A DNA stretch of 41,532 nucleotides from contig CAVEVC010000075.1 of the NCBI GenBank assembly GCA_963618935.1, positions 1-41,532 on the forward strand, read 5' to 3'. This stretch comes from Clostridiales bacterium CCNA10 (GTDB lineage: Bacteria; Verrucomicrobiota; Kiritimatiellia; RFP12; UBA1067). The translations under genes were made by a program, and so were the position numbers. The notes under the pieces are model-generated. The model was not told the DNA's origin. It saw only the letters and a program-made list of their open reading frames with translations, and did not search any database. This document shows, in pieces, positions 5,561-41,452 of this stretch; the stretch's first letter is position 1, and every line of letters starts with the position of its first letter.

Positions 5561-6589
5561 ATGCCCGACCTCGGCATCAACCGCGACATCCCCGTCTGGC
5601 TGTCGCTCGCGTTCATCGTGGGCGGGCTCGTCGTGCTGGCCTGGAGCGCGGACCGGTTCGTCGCGGCGGCGGCGCGCCTCGCGCGGGCGTTCGGCGTCTC
5701 GCCGCTCATCGTGGGCATGGTCGTCATCGGGTTCGGGACGAGCGCGCCGGAGCTGGCGGTCTCGCTGCTCTCGGCCCTCTCCGGCCAGTCCAACCTCTCC
5801 CTCGGCAACGCCTACGGGTCGTGTACGTTCAACCTGGGGGTCATCCTGGGCGTGACGGCGTTCATCTCGCCCATCGTCGTGAAGCCGTCCGTCTCGTTCT
5901 GCGGCGTGCCGCTTCTGCTGGGCGTGACGGCGCTTTCCTACTTCCTCGTGCGGGACATGGCCTTCGCGCGCGTGAACGGCGCCGTGCTGCTCGTCGCCTT
6001 CCTCCTGGTCATGCCGCTCTACTGCTGGTTCGACCAGATGAAGGGGCAGAAGCCGGCGGCGGCCGCCGGGGCGGAGGCGCCCGCGGCGCGGCCGCGCGTG
6101 CGCGCGGGCGACTTCGCGCTGCTCGTCGCGGGGCTGGGCCTGCTCGTCGCCTCGTCGCACGTCCTCGTGTGGGGGTGCGTGGACGTCGCGCGCGACGTGC
6201 TGGGCGTCTCGCCGCTCCTGATCGGGCTCACGATCGTCGCGGCGGGCACGTCGCTGCCGGAGTTCGCGAGCGCGCTCGCCTCCGCGCGGCGCGGCGAGCA
6301 TGAGTTCGTCATCGGCAACATCGTGGGGTCGAACCTCTTCAACGCCCTCGCCGTGGTGGGGGTGGCGGGGACGGTCTCGCCGTTCGCCGGCTACAGCCGC
6401 TACATCGTGTCGCGGGACCTGCCGGCGATGTTCCTCATGTCGGCGCTCCTCTTCGTATTCGGCTTCAACTGGCGCCGGCCGTCCGAGCCCGGCCGGATCG
6501 TCCGCCGGGAGGGCGCGCTCTGGGCGCTGCTCTTCGCCGCCTATCTCGTCGTCATGGTTCTCCAGGAGACGGGGCGCTTGCCCCGGTGA
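5561..6589 (+). CDS. Na+/Ca2+ exchanger (CaCA, YrbG-like) family membrane protein
   Basis: The track ORF 4982-6589 was trimmed to the ATG at 5561 ([18 protein letters not shown]). Both alpha-repeat signatures are present: [12 protein letters not shown] and [12 protein letters not shown]. It has multiple hydrophobic helices. Confidence 0.85.
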
Positions 6590-7522: not shown

Positions 7523-10456
7523 ATGCGAACAAGGACATTCTGCGCGGCGGCCGGCCTGGTGGCGGCCGCGGCGGCGCTGACGGGATGCAACGAGGCGGCG
7601 AACGCGCGGCGGACGACGTCCCTCTGCGGCGACGGCTGGCGCTTCGCGAAGGACGCGGGCGGCGCGCTCAAGGCGGAGGCGGCGGACTTCGACGACGCGG
7701 CCTGGCAGGCGGTCGAGGTGCCGCACGACTGGGCGATCTCGGGCCCGTTCAGCCCCGAGGCGGACGGCGGCTCGGGCAAGCTGCCCTGGCGGGGCGTGGG
7801 CTGGTACCGCCGCGCGTTCGCGGTCTCGGCGGAGACGGCCCGCGCCGTGCAGGCGGGCGGCGCGCTCTGGCTGGAGTTCGACGGCGTGATGGCGCGCCCG
7901 GAGGTCTACGTGAACGGCGCCCGCGCGGGCGGGTGGAACTACGGCTACATGGGCTTCCGCGTGGACGTGGCGCCGTTCGTGCGGGAAGGGGAGAACGTCC
8001 TCGCCGTGCGCGCCGACACGCGCGACCACCATTCGCGCTGGTACCCGGGCGCGGGCATCTACCGGGCCGTGCGGCTCGTCGCGGCGCCGGCGGTCCACGT
8101 CGCCCCGGGGACGGCGTTCGTGACGACGCCGGGCGGCGCGCGGGAAAGCGCGAGCGTGCGCGTCGCGTTTGAGGTCACGAACCGCCTCGACGCCGCCGTC
8201 TCGGTGGACGCGGGCGTGCGCCTCGAAGGCGCGGGCGCGAAGGCGGGGGAGGCGAGGCGGATCGGCGCGAAGGGCCGCGCGACGTTCGTCTTCGACCTGG
8301 AGGTGGTGAACCCGCGCCTCTGGGACGTCGAGAGCCCCGCGCTCTACACGGCGGAGGTCGGCGTGCGGGCGAAGGGCGCGCTCGACGCCGAGACGGTGCG
8401 CTTCGGCATCCGCACGGCCGAGTTCACGGCCGACGACGGCTTCCACCTGAACGGACGGCGCGTGCAGCTCAACGGCGTCGACCTCCACTCGGACATGGGA
8501 CCCCTCGGCATGGCCTTCAACCGCAGCGTCATGCGCCGCCAGCTGACGATCATGAAGGACATGGGCGCGAACGCCCTCCGCACGAGCCACAACGCCTGCG
8601 ACCCGCAGGTGCTGGACCTCTGCGACGAGCTCGGCATCGTCGTCTGGAACGAGTGCTTCGACAAGTGGGACGGCACGAGCGGCCGGCGGAAGGGCGAGAG
8701 CCTGGAGGACTACGTGGCGGAGAACCTGCGCGCGTTCGCGCGCCGCGACCGCAACCACCCCAGCGTCGTCGTCTGGTCGATCGGCAACGAGATCACGCCG
8801 AACGGCTGGGACTGGGGCGGGAAGAACCCGAAGGCGCAGGACGGCATGAGCGCCGAGCGCTTCCGCCTCTTCCGCGCCGCGATCCGCGAGCTCGACCCGA
8901 CGCGCCCCGTCGGCATCGGCTGCTGCCACGGCCAGGCCGTCGACACGGGCATGTTCGCGGAGCTGGACCTGACGGGCTGGAACTACGGCGCGCAGTACCG
9001 CAAGGTCAAGGCGCGCCACCCCGACAAGCCCGTCGTCTACTCCGAGAGCGCGAGCGCGCTCAGCAGCAGCGGCTTCTACGAGCAGCCCCCGGCGGCGACG
9101 AAGACGGACTACGCCGTCGCGCGGCGCGAGGTGGGCGCCTACGAGCACAACGCCGCCCCCTGGAGCGACATCCCGGACGTCGAGTTCGCGCGCATGGAGG
9201 AGGACCGCTACTGCGCGGGGGAGTTCGTCTGGACGGGCATCGACTACCTCGGCGAGCCGACGCCCTACGTGCAGGGCGGCTCGTTCCCGATGATGAAGGA
9301 CCTCAAGAAGGGCGAGCTCGCGCGCAGCTCCTACTTCGGCGTCGCGGACCTCATGGGCCTGCCGAAGGCGCGCTACTGGCTCTACCGCTCGCACTGGAAC
9401 AGGAAGGACAGCACGGTGCAGGTCACCCCGCACTGGAACTGGCCCGATCCCGCGTCCAAGGCGGGCCCGCCCGCCGCCGTCCCCGTCTACGTCTACACGG
9501 ACGGCGACGAGGCCGAGCTGTTCCTGAACGGCCAGTCGCTCGGGCGCCGGCGGAAGGGCGTGTCGCAGCGCCCGGCGAACTTCGCGGCGGGCAGGCCCGT
9601 GGACGCGAGCAGCGTCGAACGGCGCGGCGACCGGGTCAACGCCCCGTCCCACGCGGTCGACGGCGAAGACGGCACGCGCTGGTGCGCGAGCGGGCCCGAG
9701 AAGGGCGCCTGGTGGCAGGTCGACCTCGGCGCCGTGCGCGCGTTCCGCACCGTCCTCGTCTCGGGCGAGCAGGCGGACGGCAACTACGCCTGGACGGTCC
9801 GCGTCTCCGACGACGGCAAGGCCTGGCGCGACTTCGCGAAGAAGCCGCTGGGCGCGGCGCAGAAGCCCGTCGCCGGCACGGCGGCGCGCGCCCGGTTCGT
9901 GCGCGTCGTCTTCGACGACCTGCGGGACGGGACGTGGCCGTCCATCCGCGAGGTCGTCGTGAGCGACTGCGCGGATGCGTTCCGCCTCAACCCCTACTAC
10001 GACGTGTGCGACCGCTACCGCCTGCGCTGGTTCGACGTGCCCTACCGCCCGGGCGAGCTGAAGGCCGTCGCCTACAAGGGCGGGTCGCCGATCGGCGAGG
10101 CCGTGGTGCGCACGGCCGAGAAGCCCGTCGCGGTGAAGCTCGCCGCCGAGGCGGCCGCGCTGCCGGCCGACGGCGAGACGTGCGTCTTTGTGCAGGTCGA
10201 CGTGGTGGACGCGAAGGGGACGCGCGACCCGTGGGCGACGGACCGCGTGTCGTTCGAGCTGACCGGCCCGGGGAAGATCCTCGCCGTCGGCAACGCCGAC
10301 CCGCGCGCCCACGAGGCGTTCACGAAGGTCGATTCGCACCCGCTCTACTTCGGCAAGGCCGTCGCCGTCGTGCGGCGCGACAAGGGCGCCGCCGGGCCCA
10401 TCGTCCTGAAGGCCGCCGTCAAGGGCCTGAAGCCCGCCGAGGTCGAATTCCGCTAG
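7523..10456 (+). CDS. glycoside hydrolase family 2 lipoprotein with a discoidin (F5/8 type C)-like domain
   Basis: The track ORF 7271-10456 was trimmed to the ATG at 7523. It has a lipoprotein signal MRTRTFCAAAGLVAAAAALTGC. The GH2 sugar-binding, Ig and TIM layout includes NHPSVVVWSIGNE (acid/base Glu). A later segment, DGEDGTRWCAS..WWQVDLG, is typical of F5/8 type C domains. Confidence 0.85.
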   Translation: MRTRTFCAAAGLVAAAAALTGCNEAANARRTTSLCGDGWRFAKDAGGALKAEAADFDDAAWQAVEVPHDWAISGPFSPEADGGSGKLPWRGVGWYRRAFAVSAETARAVQAGGALWLEFDGVMARPEVYVNGARAGGWNYGYMGFRVDVAPFVREGENVLAVRADTRDHHSRWYPGAGIYRAVRLVAAPAVHVAPGTAFVTTPGGARESASVRVAFEVTNRLDAAVSVDAGVRLEGAGAKAGEARRIGAKGRATFVFDLEVVNPRLWDVESPALYTAEVGVRAKGALDAETVRFGIRTAEFTADDGFHLNGRRVQLNGVDLHSDMGPLGMAFNRSVMRRQLTIMKDMGANALRTSHNACDPQVLDLCDELGIVVWNECFDKWDGTSGRRKGESLEDYVAENLRAFARRDRNHPSVVVWSIGNEITPNGWDWGGKNPKAQDGMSAERFRLFRAAIRELDPTRPVGIGCCHGQAVDTGMFAELDLTGWNYGAQYRKVKARHPDKPVVYSESASALSSSGFYEQPPAATKTDYAVARREVGAYEHNAAPWSDIPDVEFARMEEDRYCAGEFVWTGIDYLGEPTPYVQGGSFPMMKDLKKGELARSSYFGVADLMGLPKARYWLYRSHWNRKDSTVQVTPHWNWPDPASKAGPPAAVPVYVYTDGDEAELFLNGQSLGRRRKGVSQRPANFAAGRPVDASSVERRGDRVNAPSHAVDGEDGTRWCASGPEKGAWWQVDLGAVRAFRTVLVSGEQADGNYAWTVRVSDDGKAWRDFAKKPLGAAQKPVAGTAARARFVRVVFDDLRDGTWPSIREVVVSDCADAFRLNPYYDVCDRYRLRWFDVPYRPGELKAVAYKGGSPIGEAVVRTAEKPVAVKLAAEAAALPADGETCVFVQVDVVDAKGTRDPWATDRVSFELTGPGKILAVGNADPRAHEAFTKVDSHPLYFGKAVAVVRRDKGAAGPIVLKAAVKGLKPAEVEFR

Positions 10457-10480
10457 GCGCCGCGCGGGATGCCGCCCTCG

Positions 10481-10515
10481 GGCGGCCCGCCCTCTCTTGG
10501 CGGGCCGCCTTTCTT
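10481..10515 (+). terminator. rho-independent terminator of the GH2 gene
   Basis: Perfect 11-bp stem GGCGGCCCGCC (10481-10491) / GGCGGGCCGCC (10499-10509) with loop ctctctt, followed by TTTCTT (10510-15). It marks the last high-GC sequence before the island. Confidence 0.8.
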
Positions 10516-10650
10516 ATGCTATACCAACGCGCGCTTCAGCACCGTTGTGGCAAGCACGCTTGAATTCAGACGACACCGCACCAGCTCTCTGCGAGAGGCA
10601 GAACGCAAAAACTGCATCTGCCAGTAAATAAGGATTAAAAACAGAATTGT

Positions 10651-11670
10651 TCATTGAAGCGAGCCTTCCTCTGGCTGCCTCGGTTTTTTAGGCTCGAGAT
10701 TTGTATCGTTAGAGGTTGGGTTGTAGATGGAAAGAAACTTCAACGCCGCGCCTCTTTTCCCCCCAGCGAACTGGACATGGCAAATCTGAAAATAATTTGC
10801 CGCCTTAAGTGTGCCATCCTCGTTCAACTTGCATCTGCTTCTGATAACAAGAACTTTTGACGGATCAAACAATTCCCGTTCATATCCTATGACATTTCCC
10901 CGCTTGTCGCGGCCGGCAACACGTTCCGAATAGGAAAATTCCGTCTTGTAATCTTCGTTGGTATTGGCAGTATAGATACCAATGTATTCGCTCCCGTGCG
11001 TCTTTGTCGCATAGTATCCGCCCGCGTATTTTTCTGTGAACCGCATTTTCAAGGCCATCCCTTTATACTCTTTATTATGCCATAGCCCGTCCCAATCAAA
11101 CATAACCTCCACATCAGAAGCGGTGCCGATGCCATACGGTTTTACAAAATCGTACTTCATCAAATCAAACCCAATCCACTTCTGCAGTTCCATGGTCCTT
11201 TTCCACTCTGGAGCATTGGCGATTCGTGCCTGTGGATTTTTTATGGGCAGTAATACGATTTTCCTAGCCATACCCCAAGGCTGCCATTTTGAGCCTTTTA
11301 CTTCATGTTCATGCCCCATACTGATGAAACTGACAAAATCGTTCGACCGATAATATCCTTCTCGCGAGACTTCTATTTCCAATGCCCCTTTCGTTTTCCC
11401 CTCGACCGCACAAACGCCATTAGCGTCTGTCTGGGTAATCACCCGCCGTCCTTTGGAACGGTCGGCCATATCGAAGAAAACATTGACGACGGCATCTTTA
11501 ACGGGGTCTCCCACGTCGTCCACAATTCTAAACTCAACCCTTGCCCATGCTCCTTTGTCATATGCTTTCTGGAAATCCGTGAGGTCGATTCCAGGCAAGG
11601 CGCATACTGGTAAAGCCCATAATGCCAGCATTGACATCAAGCAACCGTTAGCAAAGCCTCCTCTTTTCAT
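10651..11670 (-). CDS. secreted hypothetical protein (candidate partner or immunity protein of the giant hydrolase)
   Basis: 339 aa, low-GC codon usage. N-terminal signal peptide MKRGGFANGCLMSMLALWALPVCALPG. A segment RVEFRIVDDVGDPVKDAVVNVFF..TDANGVCAVEG resembles carboxypeptidase-regulatory-like beta-sandwich domains. Its start ATG overlaps the stop of the upstream gene (ATGA at 11667-11670). Confidence 0.8.
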   Translation of the reverse strand: MKRGGFANGCLMSMLALWALPVCALPGIDLTDFQKAYDKGAWARVEFRIVDDVGDPVKDAVVNVFFDMADRSKGRRVITQTDANGVCAVEGKTKGALEIEVSREGYYRSNDFVSFISMGHEHEVKGSKWQPWGMARKIVLLPIKNPQARIANAPEWKRTMELQKWIGFDLMKYDFVKPYGIGTASDVEVMFDWDGLWHNKEYKGMALKMRFTEKYAGGYYATKTHGSEYIGIYTANTNEDYKTEFSYSERVAGRDKRGNVIGYERELFDPSKVLVIRSRCKLNEDGTLKAANYFQICHVQFAGGKRGAALKFLSIYNPTSNDTNLEPKKPRQPEEGSLQ

Positions 11671-14600
11671 TCGAGTTCTCCTTCTTCTTTGATTTTCTCA
11701 AAAAACCTAAACACGAAAAAATATGCCATGTCCTTTATGTCGGAATGCAGCCATCTGTCGCCCCAGCTCCCGAACAGTCCATTGGGACGCGAGACCCAAC
11801 CATTGGGGCGAGATATGCCATTTTGCGTCTCATCAGTAGAGTTTAAGTTGTACATCGAGTCGTTCATTGAATATGGCCCCCATTTCATGGCGCCGCTTGC
11901 CGGCGTTCTTGATGGTATGCCCTTTGCGAGAAGCGCTCCTCGCAATAAAAGAGGGAGGGAGTTCGTGTTCATGCTCGCGGGTTGAAGTTTGAATACGGTG
12001 CTGGTCTTCAACTCCGCCAACGACATCTCCCACGCATGAGTCGGCTGTATCGTGTTATAGCCCAATGCATTTTCACGAATGCCCCAACCAGCCCAATCAG
12101 TTGTTCCCGTTCGGGCGACTAGGCCCTTGCGTCCTTTCCACAGTTCCTGCTTGTGCCATGAGTAATGCTCGAACATCTGATCCCAGTTCTCATACCCGTC
12201 AATAGCCCAGATGTTGTTGTTGCGTTCAAGTTCAAGAACATGGTCACCGGTGGAATAGAAGTTCACCGCGTAATCTGCGACATCGGCAAATCTGCCACCC
12301 CACGTCAGCAATTGCCTATCATCCCCAGCCTCTTCTTCAAAGCACTTATACCACTCGTTGGCAAACGCCGTTCTTGGATATTCGTTCCAATCCTTATGGA
12401 CGAGAACATTGGTCGGAGTCAAAGTCGTATCATACGCCTCCGCAGGGACGGCGGAGTTGCACATGATGTACTTCGACACCTGCAGCCCATAGTCTTGTAT
12501 CATCGACGAGACGACCATGTTGCCGAGCGAATGCGCCATAATGACCTTGTCGCCTTGGATGTTAGAGAGAATCGGTGCAAGTTGGCTTGCAACAACGAAG
12601 GCATTGGACGCATTTTCGTGGTAGTTCGCCGGGGCTCCGATGTTGCTTCGCCAATCGACATTGTAGAAATCTGCGTGGATGCCGGAAACCCACAGCCGCT
12701 TGAAGAGTATGTCGCCCCAGGATTCGGCCTGCGCTTCGCTGACATTTGCGCCGTGCAGGAAGATGAGGGATTTCGTGTTCTGATCATCCCATATACTATG
12801 GACTGCCGTTGAGCGGATGACGCTGTCATCGGACAGCTGCCGGCTGTTTATCCAACTGTACATCTGCTTCACGGGCAGAATCGTCATGGGCACGGAGTAT
12901 GTGTATAGCAGCTCATCGCCCACTTTTATGTCAATGCGCATTAAGGCGTACGAGGATTTCGCCTCGCACACCATAAGCCCCGAATTCTCCGAGAACTGGC
13001 TGATGGCCGAGTACGGAAGTTCAACTCCACCAACCGGCAGCGCGAGAAGAGATGCGGAGGACAAAGGTTGTCCTGCAAGGGTTGTGGCGTTCATGGTCTG
13101 CACGGAACCGGCAACGTTCCACGGAATGTCAGCAAGGCAGAAGTTGAATGAGTTTGTGTTGCCCCATTCGGGCTTGATCTCATACGAGACTCGATCGCCC
13201 CATGCCGCCTTGAATTTCTCCAAGTCCAAGGCGACGGGGAAGAAATTTATCAAGTCAAACGTACCATTGACAACAAGGTCTGAGGAATTCGCCTTCGTGT
13301 AATCCCTGTTAGGGACAATATAATCCCCATATATCTTGTCCTCGTTAACCCAGTAGTAGAACGTACGGTTGTCGAACCAGGCAGCCGAGTCGCCATCGTC
13401 GATGGAACCGTCGCGGCTGATGTCGAGACGCATCGGCGGGCGCAGCGATGTGATGCGCTGGACTGCCTGGTCCTGCACAAACTTTCCGTCGACCACGTTC
13501 CAATAGCGGAACACGAGACTGACCGCACCTGGGGTGGACGAAGTGATGTAGATTGGGAGCTCGGAGGATTCTCCACTGGTTGCGCGTTTCATCAGGGCTT
13601 TCCAGTAGGCCATTGGAAGGTCTTTCATGGGCGTAGTATCCGTGTCCAGAAGCTTGCGATAGTTCCACGTGCGCCGGTCGTAGTACCAGATCTTGAACTG
13701 GCCGGTCGCGTTCGCAAGTTCGAGATGGACATTGCCGTCCGGGAGCTTGACGTTCGTGACGAGGCGCAGGGTCGGCGCATGCCACAGGTTCGTGCAGACT
13801 GCCATGGGATAGCCGAAGCCGCTGTTTAGCGCGTTGTACGTCGGCAGATTCACTTCGCTGTCGCCCTTGATCGCGATGCCGAGCACGGTCTTGTTGCGCT
13901 GCTGGTAGATTTCCCCGTTGCGGGAGAAAGCGAGTATCGCGTCACCCACGGCCGAGCTCGGGTAGACTCCCGCAAGGTTGACGTCGCATGAGGTCTCCGT
14001 CTTGCTGAAGTTCTTGCCGTTCGAGTCGATGAGGCGCAGCCGGTAGGACTTGTAAGCCACGCCCACGTAGTTCGTCCAGTGGTCGGGACACGGACAGCAG
14101 TTCCGACGTTCGGTTGATACGTCGAGGTGTATCTGCTCGTAGAACGGAGGATCGCGGATGTACAGGACACCGCCGAGATGCTGGACGTTCCGCACGGAAT
14201 TCGTGTAGTCATCCTCGTGGAGGTGGGCGCATTGATCGTATGGGCAGGAATGTGTCGGGCATTCATCGTCAAAGTCGGTATCGTCAATTGGATTGGGTTC
14301 GCCTCCCTGATTGCCGCAGTCGAAACTGCACCATCCGTCGCACGCTCCCCAATAGCAGCGCCAATGCTCGTCATGGTTGTCGTCGGTTTCGTCGGAATCG
14401 TCGCCGTCGCCATCTGAATACCACGGCGGGTCTTCCGGCTGGTCGGGATTCTCCGAATCTGGATCGGGCGGGCGAGGACAGAAGCGGACAGTCTGATTAT
14501 ATGTAGTCTGCCCAAAGAGATACTGCGGATGTGCAAGTGTGTAGGTAATGCCGCCGGTGCTTCTTGCGGAGAAATTGCCGGTGATTGTCGCCGACCGTGG

Positions 14601-16361
14601 AGGATGGTTCTCGGCTTCAACATTATTTCCGCCCTGCCATGTGCAGCTCAATTGCCCGGCATCGCGGCTCGCCGGCAAGCTAACGCTTTTCTTCCTGGCG
14701 TTGAAATCGTGGATGCACGGTGTCGTCGCCACCGTGTTTGGGAAGTTGATGCGTCCAAAAGAGTTGAATGACGGCAGGACGCCAAATGCGAAATCCGCCG
14801 AATCGAGAGCGACCTGCAGCATGGGATCGCCACGCAGATAGAGCGGATACGTTTCGCCTTTCACTATCTGCACCAGCAGGGTTGTTTGTGGCGGTGCGGG
14901 AGTCAGCAGCCTCAATTGCGGTGCGCCCTGCGGCTGTTGTGACGGCGGAACAAGCGGAACGACTTGGTCGCCCACTATCAAATCGCCCGTACCGGAGCCG
15001 GACACGGACACACGAAGAACGGCCACGCTGTCGGATGATTGCGGATAGGCAAACGCTCCATTTGTGCTGCCGGAGTAGAACACGTGTTCGAGGGCTGTGT
15101 TCGTCGAGCCTTCTGGGTAGGCGAACGGATGGATTTCGCCAATCTTGAGCGCCATGCCATCAGAATAGGTGTCGTTTACGGAATGCGGATTCAACGGATC
15201 GGCGCGATAGATGAAGAGCTCTTCGCAATCCGAAAGCCCGTCATAGTCCGTGTCGGGGTTGTGGGGATTTGTGCCGTAGACGAAGAGCTCGTCGATTGTC
15301 GGCAAGCCGTCACCGTCCCAGTCTTGATTAGTCATATCCTCCTCGGAGAGAGGATAAAATGCCATCGATGTGATGTTTGTCGGAATCGAGTTGGTAGACC
15401 ACTCGTTGCCGCCGAATGCCGCGCCTACGAGGATGTTTGTGGCGGTGTCCGTGTTCAGCCGCGAGAGGTCGTAGCGGTAGATGAACTGGCCGTCCGGCTT
15501 GAACTCTGCCTGGAACGAGAGCGTGGCATCGGTGTCGCGGTCAAGAAGAGCGTTCTGCCAAGTCATGAGGAACGAGTTCCAGGGAGTGATTGCGTACCAC
15601 ACTTGGCTTGGCTTGTCGGCTTCGGCGAGCCAGTCCCAGTTCGCCTCCGGCACGATACCGAGCGAGGCCGTGATCGGGGCGAACCAGTAGTTTGCGGCGA
15701 TTGTGCCGCCGGTCTCGCGTATCAACGGCTCGATCTTGCCGAAAGCATAGACGCGCAGCCGATTCACCTCGTTTGTGGAGACTTGGAACGCCCAGTTCGT
15801 GAGTGCCACGTAAATCCAGTCCGTCGCCGCACCGAACGCCCGCCAGTCTGAGACGATGGTCGCGTCGGCAATCGGCGAGAAGTCGAACTGCTCGTCCGCC
15901 CCGATGCGTGTCTGGACAAAACCTCGCTCGAAGTCGGCGGCGGTGATCGTGCGCATTGTGTTCGTCGACGTGATGATGTCAATGTCGGGGAGATCGGGCA
16001 TTGCGCCGCTGTTCAGCGGCTGAAACCCGATGTGCTGTGCGCCTATTTCGGATTGCCGCTGTACGGCTCCCTGCGAAAGTCCGCCTGACGGCATGACCAT
16101 CTGCGGGACATTGTTCGTTCCGCCGCTGCCGTCGCCGTCACCATCTCCGCCACCGCCGCCCGGCTTGACGCTGGCGAAAACCCATAATGCGATGAAGAGC
16201 GAGCCGAGGATGATGCGCCCGGCCTTTGTCTGCTTCTTGAAGAACGCCGCGAAGTCCCGCAGCGGATGGACGTTTTTCTCGCGGCAGACGAGGATCAGCC
16301 ACGCGCAGAAGAACATCCACGCGGAAAACAGCAAGGCGCCCGTCCAGACCTTCGCAATCAT
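11667..16361 (-). CDS. giant (1564 aa) membrane-anchored multidomain protein with TSP3-like Ca-binding repeats and a C-terminal alpha/beta-hydrolase (lipase/esterase-like) domain
   Basis: There are two N-terminal hydrophobic helices (aa 7-26 and 48-65), then a GGGGGDGDGDGSGG linker. DWDGDGLPTIDELFVYGTNPHNPDTDYDGLSDCEELFIYRADPLNP (aa 347-392, nt 15186-15323) matches thrombospondin type 3-like repeats. An acidic Cys/His-rich block spans aa 631-765 (nt 14067-14471). The C-terminal domain has LIFLHG (oxyanion HG), a nucleophile elbow MAHSLGN (Ser1278, codon 12528-12530), STGDHV (Asp1373) and RWLHSD (His1539). Confidence 0.85.
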   Translation of the reverse strand: MIAKVWTGALLFSAWMFFCAWLILVCREKNVHPLRDFAAFFKKQTKAGRIILGSLFIALWVFASVKPGGGGGDGDGDGSGGTNNVPQMVMPSGGLSQGAVQRQSEIGAQHIGFQPLNSGAMPDLPDIDIITSTNTMRTITAADFERGFVQTRIGADEQFDFSPIADATIVSDWRAFGAATDWIYVALTNWAFQVSTNEVNRLRVYAFGKIEPLIRETGGTIAANYWFAPITASLGIVPEANWDWLAEADKPSQVWYAITPWNSFLMTWQNALLDRDTDATLSFQAEFKPDGQFIYRYDLSRLNTDTATNILVGAAFGGNEWSTNSIPTNITSMAFYPLSEEDMTNQDWDGDGLPTIDELFVYGTNPHNPDTDYDGLSDCEELFIYRADPLNPHSVNDTYSDGMALKIGEIHPFAYPEGSTNTALEHVFYSGSTNGAFAYPQSSDSVAVLRVSVSGSGTGDLIVGDQVVPLVPPSQQPQGAPQLRLLTPAPPQTTLLVQIVKGETYPLYLRGDPMLQVALDSADFAFGVLPSFNSFGRINFPNTVATTPCIHDFNARKKSVSLPASRDAGQLSCTWQGGNNVEAENHPPRSATITGNFSARSTGGITYTLAHPQYLFGQTTYNQTVRFCPRPPDPDSENPDQPEDPPWYSDGDGDDSDETDDNHDEHWRCYWGACDGWCSFDCGNQGGEPNPIDDTDFDDECPTHSCPYDQCAHLHEDDYTNSVRNVQHLGGVLYIRDPPFYEQIHLDVSTERRNCCPCPDHWTNYVGVAYKSYRLRLIDSNGKNFSKTETSCDVNLAGVYPSSAVGDAILAFSRNGEIYQQRNKTVLGIAIKGDSEVNLPTYNALNSGFGYPMAVCTNLWHAPTLRLVTNVKLPDGNVHLELANATGQFKIWYYDRRTWNYRKLLDTDTTPMKDLPMAYWKALMKRATSGESSELPIYITSSTPGAVSLVFRYWNVVDGKFVQDQAVQRITSLRPPMRLDISRDGSIDDGDSAAWFDNRTFYYWVNEDKIYGDYIVPNRDYTKANSSDLVVNGTFDLINFFPVALDLEKFKAAWGDRVSYEIKPEWGNTNSFNFCLADIPWNVAGSVQTMNATTLAGQPLSSASLLALPVGGVELPYSAISQFSENSGLMVCEAKSSYALMRIDIKVGDELLYTYSVPMTILPVKQMYSWINSRQLSDDSVIRSTAVHSIWDDQNTKSLIFLHGANVSEAQAESWGDILFKRLWVSGIHADFYNVDWRSNIGAPANYHENASNAFVVASQLAPILSNIQGDKVIMAHSLGNMVVSSMIQDYGLQVSKYIMCNSAVPAEAYDTTLTPTNVLVHKDWNEYPRTAFANEWYKCFEEEAGDDRQLLTWGGRFADVADYAVNFYSTGDHVLELERNNNIWAIDGYENWDQMFEHYSWHKQELWKGRKGLVARTGTTDWAGWGIRENALGYNTIQPTHAWEMSLAELKTSTVFKLQPASMNTNSLPLLLRGALLAKGIPSRTPASGAMKWGPYSMNDSMYNLNSTDETQNGISRPNGWVSRPNGLFGSWGDRWLHSDIKDMAYFFVFRFFEKIKEEGELE

Positions 16362-16365
16362 GGCA

Positions 16366-16905
16366 TTACCTTAATTTGATCACGAAGAAATTGTATCCGA
16401 CCTCGCAGCGGACCCATTCGCCCGGCGTCTCAGCGCCGCGTCTGACCACGCGCATCATCTTCCAGTTGTTCCTGTAGAGCCAGGCCGGAGGGTGCGTTGT
16501 GGAAAGAGCGGCGAATGCCGTCTCGCCCCCGCAAGTGGCGGAGAAATCCGCCAGAACCGAATCCATGTCAAGCGCCATGTGTACGTCGAAAACGCCAGCC
16601 TGCGCGTTGTTGGCGGCATCCGTCTCAATCCTCTCCCAGGTGCGGGCGTTTTCGATGAAGTAGCCCCCCCCCCCCCCCCGCCAGCCATAGACCGTATCGA
16701 TCTCCTCGACATCGAGGATGCCGTTCGTGTTCACATCGCATCCGAATCCGACCTCAAGATCGTTGTATTCGGTTCCGTTCAGCTGCAGATGCAGTTTCAC
16801 CTCCCGGACGTCTGTCCGGCAATCGAAGACAAGACAGCCCCCGTTGCCGATCTCGTCGGCCGGCAATCCACTCTTGAAGGAGAACGATTTTATCGACAGT
16901 TTCAT
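16366..16905 (-). CDS. hypothetical 179-aa protein, first gene of the island operon, containing a G16 homopolymer and an EF-hand-like loop
   Basis: The ORF has no signal peptide. DVNTNGILDVEE (aa 57-68, nt 16702-16737) fits the 12-residue EF-hand loop pattern D-x-N-x-N-G-x-L-D-x-x-E. The G tract encodes R76-G81. Its stop codon TAA lies inside the AAGG Shine-Dalgarno of the next gene, with a 4-nt gap. Confidence 0.7.
   Translation of the reverse strand: MKLSIKSFSFKSGLPADEIGNGGCLVFDCRTDVREVKLHLQLNGTEYNDLEVGFGCDVNTNGILDVEEIDTVYGWRGGGGGYFIENARTWERIETDAANNAQAGVFDVHMALDMDSVLADFSATCGGETAFAALSTTHPPAWLYRNNWKMMRVVRRGAETPGEWVRCEVGYNFFVIKLR
16664..16679 (-). repeat. homopolymeric tract: 16 consecutive C on the + strand (G16 on the coding strand) inside the 179-aa ORF
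   Basis: Counted directly: tag + 7 C (16664-16670) + 9 C (16671-16679) + g. It is read as cgg ggg ggg ggg ggg ggc, giving R-G-G-G-G-G. A second frame through the tract is also open (track ORF 16455-16712) and stops at 16455. Confidence 0.95.
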
Positions 16906-25532: not shown

Positions 25533-25540
25533 GGGGACGC

Positions 25541-25578
25541 GGCACGCGAAGTACCCGCGCCGCCCTCGGCGCGTGGCG
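25541..25578 (+). repeat. REP-like repeat, family 1, copy B
   Basis: The sequence is ggcacgcgaaGTACCCGCGCCGCCCTCGGCGCGTGGCG. It sits between the convergent stops of the MFS gene (25532) and the outer-membrane gene (25592). Confidence 0.85.
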
Positions 25579-27056: not shown

Positions 27057-27134
27057 AAAAATCGCCCCTCGGACGTCGCGCGGGGAAGCAGGATGGGGGG
27101 CGGACGCAATGAATTGCGTCCCTCCCATTGACTC

Positions 27135-27172
27135 GGCACGCAAAGTACCCGCGCCGCCCTCGGCGCGTGGCG
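27135..27172 (+). repeat. REP-like repeat, family 1, copy C
   Basis: The sequence is ggcacgcaaaGTACCCGCGCCGCCCTCGGCGCGTGGCG. It is the left arm of an inverted pair with copy D. Confidence 0.85.
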
Positions 27173-27188
27173 TCCCACAGCGGCACGG

Positions 27189-27212
27189 GGGAGGGTCGCG
27201 CTTGTCGCGACC
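27189..27212 (+). repeat. hairpin repeat, family 2 (GGGAGGGTCGCG-N5-CGCGACC), copy 2
   Basis: The sequence is gggagggtcgcg cttgt cgcgacc. It is near-identical to 41-65 and is followed by a second small hairpin, gggcgg-agggac-ccgccc. Confidence 0.7.
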
Positions 27213-27235
27213 GGGCGGAGGGACCCGCCCCGCAG

Positions 27236-27273
27236 CGCCACGCGCCGAGGGCGGCGCGGGTACTTCGCGTGCC
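27236..27273 (-). repeat. REP-like repeat, family 1, copy D (inverted orientation)
   Basis: The sequence cgccacgcgccgagggcggcgcgggtacttcgcgtgcc is the reverse complement of the family-1 consensus. Copies C and D could form a long hairpin enclosing the family-2 element. Confidence 0.85.
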
Positions 27274-27316
27274 GACGTCGCCAAAGGAAATTTCTCGGAA
27301 AAATCAGGATACGGGA

Positions 27317-41291: not shown

Positions 41292-41445
41292 GGTGGGCGT
41301 TCTGCTTTTCGTCGCGCGCTGAGGGGCGTTCTGCTTTTCGTCGCGCGCTGTACCCGCGCCGCCCTCGGCGCGTGGCGCTGAGGGGCGCTTTGCTTTTCGG
41401 CGCGCGCTGTACCCGCGCCGCCCTCGGCGCGTGGCGCTGTGGGGC
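41292..41445 (+). repeat. tandem array of about 2.8 x 59 bp, each full unit containing one family-1 REP core (copies E and F)
   Basis: The units are 41321-41379 and 41380-41438, each 59 bp and differing at only a few positions. A first partial unit, 41292-41320, has the 28-29-nt left half (gggcgttctgcttttcgtcgcgcgct) but lacks the REP core. The REP cores GTACCCGCGCCGCCCTCGGCGCGTGGCG are at 41350-41377 and 41409-41436. Confidence 0.9.
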
Positions 41446-41452
41446 GGTTCTT

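Follow-up and report, generated by a model that had tools for sequence, protein, structure and literature searches.

The classic poly-G/C contingency loci of Campylobacter jejuni, Neisseria, Haemophilus and Helicobacter carry a run of G on the coding strand of an open reading frame (ORF), well above a threshold of 7 to 8 nucleotides, and belong to multi-copy families of secreted or surface genes in which the gain or loss of a single G ends translation early. Long G runs gain and lose units at high frequency through slipped-strand mispairing, and the classic repeats are kept across strains with variable length. Campylobacter tracts of at least 8 units switch, with most being 9–10 units long and those of 13–15 rare, and the cut-off used by PhasomeIt is 7 or more G/C (PMC6321876). 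In the Planctomycetes-Verrucomicrobia-Chlamydiae (PVC) group, phase variation has been proposed from sequence alone for the gut-associated Akkermansia muciniphila, on the basis of (G)8 and (C)10 tracts in capsule synthesis genes (PMC3048395). Our literature search found no link between the Kiritimatiellae, another member of this group, and phase variation.

Here we describe a G16 homopolymer on contig CAVEVC010000075.1 (41,532 nucleotides, hereafter the window) from an uncultured gut member of the Kiritimatiellae. The run lies in a small ORF (179 aa; 16366..16905, minus strand), which is the first gene of a three-gene cassette that continues with a giant gene of 1564 aa and a gene for a 339-aa protein. 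It resembles the classic loci in its coding-strand position, its length, the effect of a one-G change and the multi-copy secreted family to which its gene belongs. It differs from them in having 16 units on one contig only, with no genome-wide phasome evident. The Akkermansia case concerns a different phylum or class, different genes and shorter tracts, and in both cases phase variation is a proposal. An earlier note on this DNA had proposed a slipped-strand switch for a toxin-like operon. A real, long, frame-shifting tract was borne out by our analysis. The label of a toxin found no support, and neither did a contingency locus conserved in the family or a switch that controls the whole operon. 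Our preferred explanation, held with moderate confidence, is that the G16 tract is a real, lineage-specific and young homopolymer that most likely arose by accident while selection on this cassette copy was relaxed or fluctuating, and not as an evolved, conserved switch.

The G16 tract and its reading frames

The tract occupies 16664..16679 on the minus strand (C16 on the plus strand), in the 5' half of the small ORF with G on the coding strand, and is flanked by GGTCTATGGCTGGC on one side and CTACTTCATCGAAAACGC on the other. It encodes part of R76 and G77–G81 in the context ...TVYGW-R-G-G-G-G-G-YFIEN..., with the codons TGG CGG GGG GGG GGG GGG GGC TAC (W-R-G5-Y). The earlier note had reported the same 16 consecutive C and the same R-G5 translation, but its figure of about 50% for the local GC content was too low. 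We measured 57–58% around the tract, 55% across the island that holds the cassette (10651-16905) and 70% in the flanks.

Runs of this length are exceptional both in the window and in related DNA. No other homopolymer in the window exceeds 8 units, and the second-longest G/C run has 7. Shuffling the mononucleotides of the window 300 times gave maximum G/C runs of 8 to 14, never 16. Across 1.04 Mb comprising the window and related loci, the frequency of G/C runs dropped about 5.3-fold per added unit and runs of at least 8 were strongly depleted. The run-length spectrum of these sequences predicts 0.007 runs of at least 12 and about 9e-6 runs of at least 16. Shuffles and spectrum thus agree with the initial claim that such a run is not expected by chance.

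The run is also present in a second assembly. The exact 1564-aa product of the giant gene is encoded on a 7440-bp Logan contig (L067) of run SRR13434667, which is 100% identical to window positions 16679..9240 and whose first 16 bases are the G16 tract, followed by ctacttcatc.... Because this contig opens with the 16 G and proceeds into genuine downstream sequence, the second assembler saw at least 16 G and the tract must have been present in the reads. The graph break (k=31) falls precisely on the 5' edge of the run, which fits a fork between alleles of 16 G and of at least 17 G; library or cluster stutter would fit equally. In a DNA alignment, both flanks are collinear with those of homologues, and the net difference of +6 nt keeps the frame. 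Exact look-up of the giant and 339-aa proteins returned only the Logan contig of SRR13434667, and the same look-up gave no record of the 179-aa product. A homologue search with the N-terminus of the giant protein found nothing closer than 72%, and the intact cassette of this strain was not found in any other sample of the collection searched. Two versions of the neighbouring IleRS protein, through which the upstream Logan contig was sought, were not on record, and a literature search on run SRR13434667 returned nothing.

In silico translation showed that the number of repeats moves the small ORF in and out of frame. The full-length 179-aa product is obtained with 16 G, and likewise with 13 or 19. 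With 15 G (or 12 or 18), translation ends at a stop at 16455..16457 (minus strand), giving a 149-aa product, and with 17 G (or 14 or 20) it ends at 16625..16627 (minus strand), giving a product of 93 aa. The earlier note had placed the stop of one shifted frame correctly, but the unrelated tail that replaces the C-terminus in that frame is 69 aa long and not 59 aa. The out-of-frame tails are Arg/Pro-rich, coming from GC-rich sequence read in the wrong frame. The tract exceeds the PhasomeIt cut-off by far, and the combination of G on the coding strand with truncation of the ORF by each one-G change supports its reading as a frameshift site. By analogy with described tracts of this kind, G16 should be hypermutable by slipped-strand mispairing, and the small ORF would be expected to flip between one ON frame and two OFF frames.

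We modelled the small protein with AlphaFold2 (predicted local distance difference test score, pLDDT, of 76). The model is a beta-sandwich with weak galectin/ConA-like matches, in which the tract forms the turn linking strands 69-76 and 81-86. Being in a beta-hairpin turn, the extra Gly residues appear tolerable in this model.

The conserved turn in relatives and the sister strain

The small protein belongs to a widespread family. We found 74 homologues, all unannotated and all from gut or rumen Kiritimatiellae-type metagenome-assembled genomes (MAGs) and metagenomes, and scans of genomes and metagenomes added 140 loci. One MAG frequently contains several of them; RUG10619, RUG14821 and RUG14528, for example, have at least three copies each. 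A typical member has about 194 aa, including a signal peptide, and contains the near-invariant motif DTEVSTN; the copy in the window lacks both.

The poly-Gly stretch is not a property of this family. The family turn is encoded by TGG CGN GGN GGN CGN TAC (W-R-G-G-R-Y), with some variation to TGG CGN G/A.. GGN CGN TAY, and at about 95 homologous (orthologous or paralogous) DNA sites the longest G run is 2–6 nt and the codons are mixed. At the protein level, R-[G/A/N/T]-[G/V]-[R/C] is conserved in all 71 of the 71 motif-bearing family proteins, with poly-Gly occurring in the window only. In the closest relative (L068), TGGCGTGGAGGCCGGTAC stands in place of TGGC-G16-CTAC; relative to it, the window shows replacement of a near-invariant Arg by Gly and the addition of 6 nt. 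The repeat is therefore retained at none of these DNA sites or proteins, unlike the repeats of the classic loci. The earlier note had itself named orthologs with an interrupted tract and the same protein sequence as evidence against a switch, and this is largely what the relatives show, with mixed-codon runs of 2–6 encoding W-R-[G/A]-G-R-Y.

Some contigs of relatives end inside the small gene. We considered whether poly-G runs had broken these assemblies and rejected this, as the contigs end in ordinary sequence just before the YGW residues. The breaks probably stem from the multi-copy nature of the family.

About ten family members carry an 81-bp in-frame insert at one site (L107:4013-4093, L108:4913-4993, L085:4110-4190 and L110/L111:6259-6339), which encodes 27 aa with the consensus N-[AP]-P-V-[AT]-[ED]-G-D-Q-[VI]-[GV]-R-[MK]-S-[EV]-A-[NT]-E-P-[QR]-S-G-R-K-S-P-[GR]. 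The 27-aa insert was seen in proteins P0013, P0016, P0018, P0021, P0040, P0041, P0042, P0048, P0050, P0055 and P0058, and the related insert of P0013 lies at W-R|G-R, exactly the site of the G tract in the window. Partial copies of the 81-bp sequence occur elsewhere (L034 and L030), and a small mobile element or repeat is a possible identity for the insert.

In the closest strains, the tract region is gone altogether. Six contigs from six independent samples (L001-L006), which are 96–99% identical to the window and have the same gene order (IleRS, small gene, giant gene, 339-aa gene, GH2), represent a sister strain. In this strain, a 159-bp segment corresponding to 16551..16709 (minus strand; 53 codons, including the tract) is deleted in frame, leaving a 126-aa protein. 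A second deletion of 1187 bp (15149..16335, minus strand), with GGCGC microhomology at its ends, removes residues ~9-404 of the giant protein and with them its transmembrane (TM) anchor and conserved N-terminal domain. A third removes 631 bp (14081..14711, minus strand), and together with the 1187 bp it totals 1818 bp, or 606 codons. The junctions of the 159-, 1187- and 631-bp deletions show microhomology of 1, 5 and 1 nt, respectively. In the sister giant gene, a 958-aa ORF still runs from the original ATG by way of a 443-nt stretch that is read out of frame.

The 5' end of the small gene is damaged in both strains. Several indels, common to the window and its sister, have removed the sequence for the signal peptide and for the DTEVSTN motif. 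We considered whether the divergent N-terminus came from a single frameshift and rejected this, since the DNA alignment with the family shows several indels and these are shared by the sister. The first 30 codons of the small ORF (16816-16905) differ between window and sister by three non-synonymous changes and one synonymous change, and the ATG of this ORF is preceded, 5 codons upstream, by an in-frame TGA. Between the same two strains, the ratio of non-synonymous to synonymous substitution rates (dN/dS) was about 0.5–0.7 in the giant gene; that of the 339-aa gene was 0.23, and these values derive from very few substitutions. Judging from these sequence comparisons, this copy of the cassette is most likely under relaxed or fluctuating selection.

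The cassette and its setting

The giant gene (1564 aa; 11667..16361, minus strand) encodes N-terminal TM helices, a disordered Gly-rich linker, a beta-sandwich, TSP3-type repeats, a variable middle region and a C-terminal alpha/beta-hydrolase domain (AHSLG). Only the first ~400 residues are conserved among the giant proteins of the family, and these comprise three TM helices, the Gly-rich linker, the beta-sandwich and the TSP3 repeats. From their sequences, the giant proteins are modular, and their differing C-terminal regions can be regarded as a putative variable 'cargo'. The fold of the N-terminal domain had no match in the PDB, and a PDB sequence search of the cassette likewise gave none. 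The third gene (339 aa; 10651..11670, minus strand) has a weak CarboxypepD_reg-like match, and its start overlaps the stop of the giant gene by 4 nt. A protein of about 339 aa usually comes after the giant gene in family loci.

These assignments bear on how the cassette had been named. The earlier note's 'giant hydrolase' is a giant gene indeed, and the sole basis for the hydrolase part is a 28-bit Abhydrolase_6 match in the C-terminal third of the protein. Its description of a toxin-like module found no support: searches of Pfam, NCBIfam and PADLOC gave no toxin, immunity or defence match for the cassette proteins, and what was found instead was a galectin/ConA-like sandwich in the small protein and the domains listed above in the giant one.

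The junction between the small and giant genes (16359..16373, minus strand) consists of an SD-like (Shine-Dalgarno-like) AAGG, the small-gene TAA at 16366-16368, a 4-nt spacer and the giant-gene ATG at 16361-16359. The SD-like site is AAGG in the window and GAGGTG in relatives, and the 8-nt offset from the last sense codon to the giant ATG is kept in the large majority of related loci that reach the giant gene. This conserved arrangement of stop, 4-nt spacer and ATG makes some translational coupling of the giant gene to the small ORF plausible on sequence grounds. The gene junction, on which the idea of an operon switch was built, is confirmed; since the giant gene has an SD-like site of its own, a 'switch for the operon' is an extrapolation. 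We found no sigma-70 promoter or terminator around the tract.

The cassette (10651-16905) forms a low-GC island, with GC falling to 47% in the 339-aa gene, between genes for IleRS and a GH2 beta-galactosidase in a genome of 70% GC. No tRNA gene was found near it. A GC-rich repeat of ~45-60 nt resembling repetitive extragenic palindromic (REP) sequences occurs elsewhere in the window at 41295-41446 (in tandem), 27130-27281 and 25536-25578, and also at L001:904-958.

Origin of the tract and competing explanations

In our preferred explanation, the tract would have originated from the G-rich codons of the conserved hairpin turn through one Arg-to-Gly change and a slippage expansion of 6 nt. A population would then hold alleles of the small ORF with 16 G (in frame), 15 G (149 aa) and 17 G (93 aa), with a possible knock-on to the giant gene across the 4-nt stop-start junction. 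The copy would already have lost the export signal of the small protein by the time the sister lineage deleted the tract region and the N-terminal domain of the giant protein. This loss of the export signal and the deletions in the sister lineage are the observations that point to a non-adaptive origin. The situation is reminiscent of the homopolymer frameshifts by which slippage turns decaying genes into pseudogenes in host-restricted pathogens, as the tract lies in a copy that lacks conserved N-terminal features and relatives carry deletions in the same operon.

Several observations weigh against an incidental tract in a copy under relaxed selection. The core of the small protein (residues 30-179) retains every near-invariant residue, and its dN/dS against relatives is 0.10–0.26, like that of other family pairs. 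The window's 1564-aa and 339-aa ORFs are intact, and the cassette may well be functional. Unlike typical decaying genes, the allele is in frame, its core is without excess amino-acid change and the downstream genes are undamaged. An in-frame consensus length has a one-in-three chance under neutrality and would fit selection for the ON state too, and several alleles of different length would be expected to break an assembly at the tract, as happened here. Classic phase-variable genes likewise have G on the coding strand and their repeat in the 5' half (PMC6321876). Outlier tracts near other family members belong here as well. A C12 run (L078:49-60) corresponds to a C6 run in L079 (~5838-5843), about 25 nt upstream of a small-gene ATG, and a G19 run (L130:6081-6099) lies just after the signal peptide of a gene downstream of a family member, where it is out of frame as assembled.

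Further features of these two loci were recorded. L078 and L079 are identical over the 48 nt preceding the C run and over more than 100 nt following it. A near-identical contig from a Hadza MAG (L039) ends, at 8667, exactly at the G19 tract of L130, and a 24-nt tandem duplication of the ribosome binding site and ATG lies just upstream of that tract (~6009-6056). The gene carrying G19 was compared with the giant genes as a possible homologue, and this was rejected.

An adaptive slipped-strand contingency locus, in which G-tract length would reversibly switch the small ORF ON and OFF and, by coupling or polarity, also the giant membrane-anchored hydrolase and the 339-aa protein, so as to give heterogeneity of surface structures, is possible but in our judgement rather unlikely. 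It would account for a tract that is far above the mutability thresholds, has G on the coding strand and is in frame as assembled (PMC6321876), for a 4-nt stop-start junction conserved across the family and for the Logan contig break exactly at the tract. The family is also multi-copy and secreted or membrane-anchored, with a variable giant C-terminus, as is typical of phase-variation targets, and homopolymer phase variation has been proposed for Akkermansia (PMC3048395). Moreover, the three G/C runs of at least 12 in the 1.04 Mb (12, 16 and 19 units, the C12 and G19 runs being those upstream of an ATG and after a signal peptide) all lie within 300 nt of a small gene, a zone that makes up ~15% of these sequences, which gives a p of ~0.004 in a statistic that is post hoc. 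However, a maintained switch is difficult to reconcile with a tract that recurs at none of the ~95 sites or 71 proteins, that replaces a near-invariant Arg in a copy without an export signal, and whose region is deleted outright in the closest strains. Polarity is perhaps weak, with an SD-like site belonging to the giant gene itself and only 89–260 nt between that gene and the premature stops; there is no second long tract within the 41.5-kb window, and G/C runs of at least 8 are strongly depleted in these genomes. A broader proposal, which we regard as doubtful, is that gut and rumen Kiritimatiellae use poly-G/C tracts as contingency loci on this multi-copy cassette family, with G16, C12/C6 and G19 as instances.

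That the run, or its length of 16, came from two-colour Illumina poly-G calls, polymerase chain reaction (PCR) stutter or a mis-join, with an ordinary RGGR turn or a shorter run as the true sequence, is improbable. Homopolymers are prone to such errors, and a related Hadza MAG contig does start with C34 (L041:1-34), a typical poly-G artefact at a contig end; the tract was seen in one sample only, and the two assemblies were probably built from the same reads and hence are not independent at the read level. In contrast to such artefacts, the run in the window is internal, homologues align collinearly with the sequence on both of its sides and the frame is kept, and both assemblers gave a length of 16. 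The second assembly places G16 ahead of genuine sequence, an orientation that poly-G read tails should not be able to yield. We find it most improbable that the run acts as a G-quadruplex (G4) or through transcriptional slippage, with mixed-frame mRNAs instead of or beside length change. Quadruplex-aware folding predicted a three-layer G4 that lowers the minimum free energy (MFE) of the mRNA from -34 to -64 kcal/mol, compared with -30 for a family-type sequence. Stalled replication and deletions are known consequences of G4 motifs, and the 159-bp deletion of the sister strain spans the site; as speculation from this model, the predicted quadruplex could interfere with translation or replication and may have promoted that deletion. 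Ordinary folding, in contrast, showed nothing special (z = 0.07) and there was no match to an Rfam family. The run is absent from all homologues, and since the tract is not conserved neither are the alternative-frame tails, which makes a programmed two-frame product unlikely.

The main value of this locus is at present cautionary, as a striking homopolymer may have arisen just once, by recent expansion, in a copy of a gene that is decaying, and comparison with homologues and a sister strain is what separates such an expansion from an evolved contingency locus. A family of three-gene cassettes, widespread in the Kiritimatiellae and unannotated, emerges from the analysis as well, along with the strain-level decay of one of its copies. 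If the contingency-locus reading were true, the locus would belong to the first phasome based on simple sequence repeats (SSRs) in the phylum, and if it held together with the two other outlier tracts, SSR phase variation would extend to a phylum for which it has no prior description. If the tract slips in vivo, one strain of uncultured gut Kiritimatiellae would have a stochastic ON/OFF allele in a conserved surface-protein cassette.

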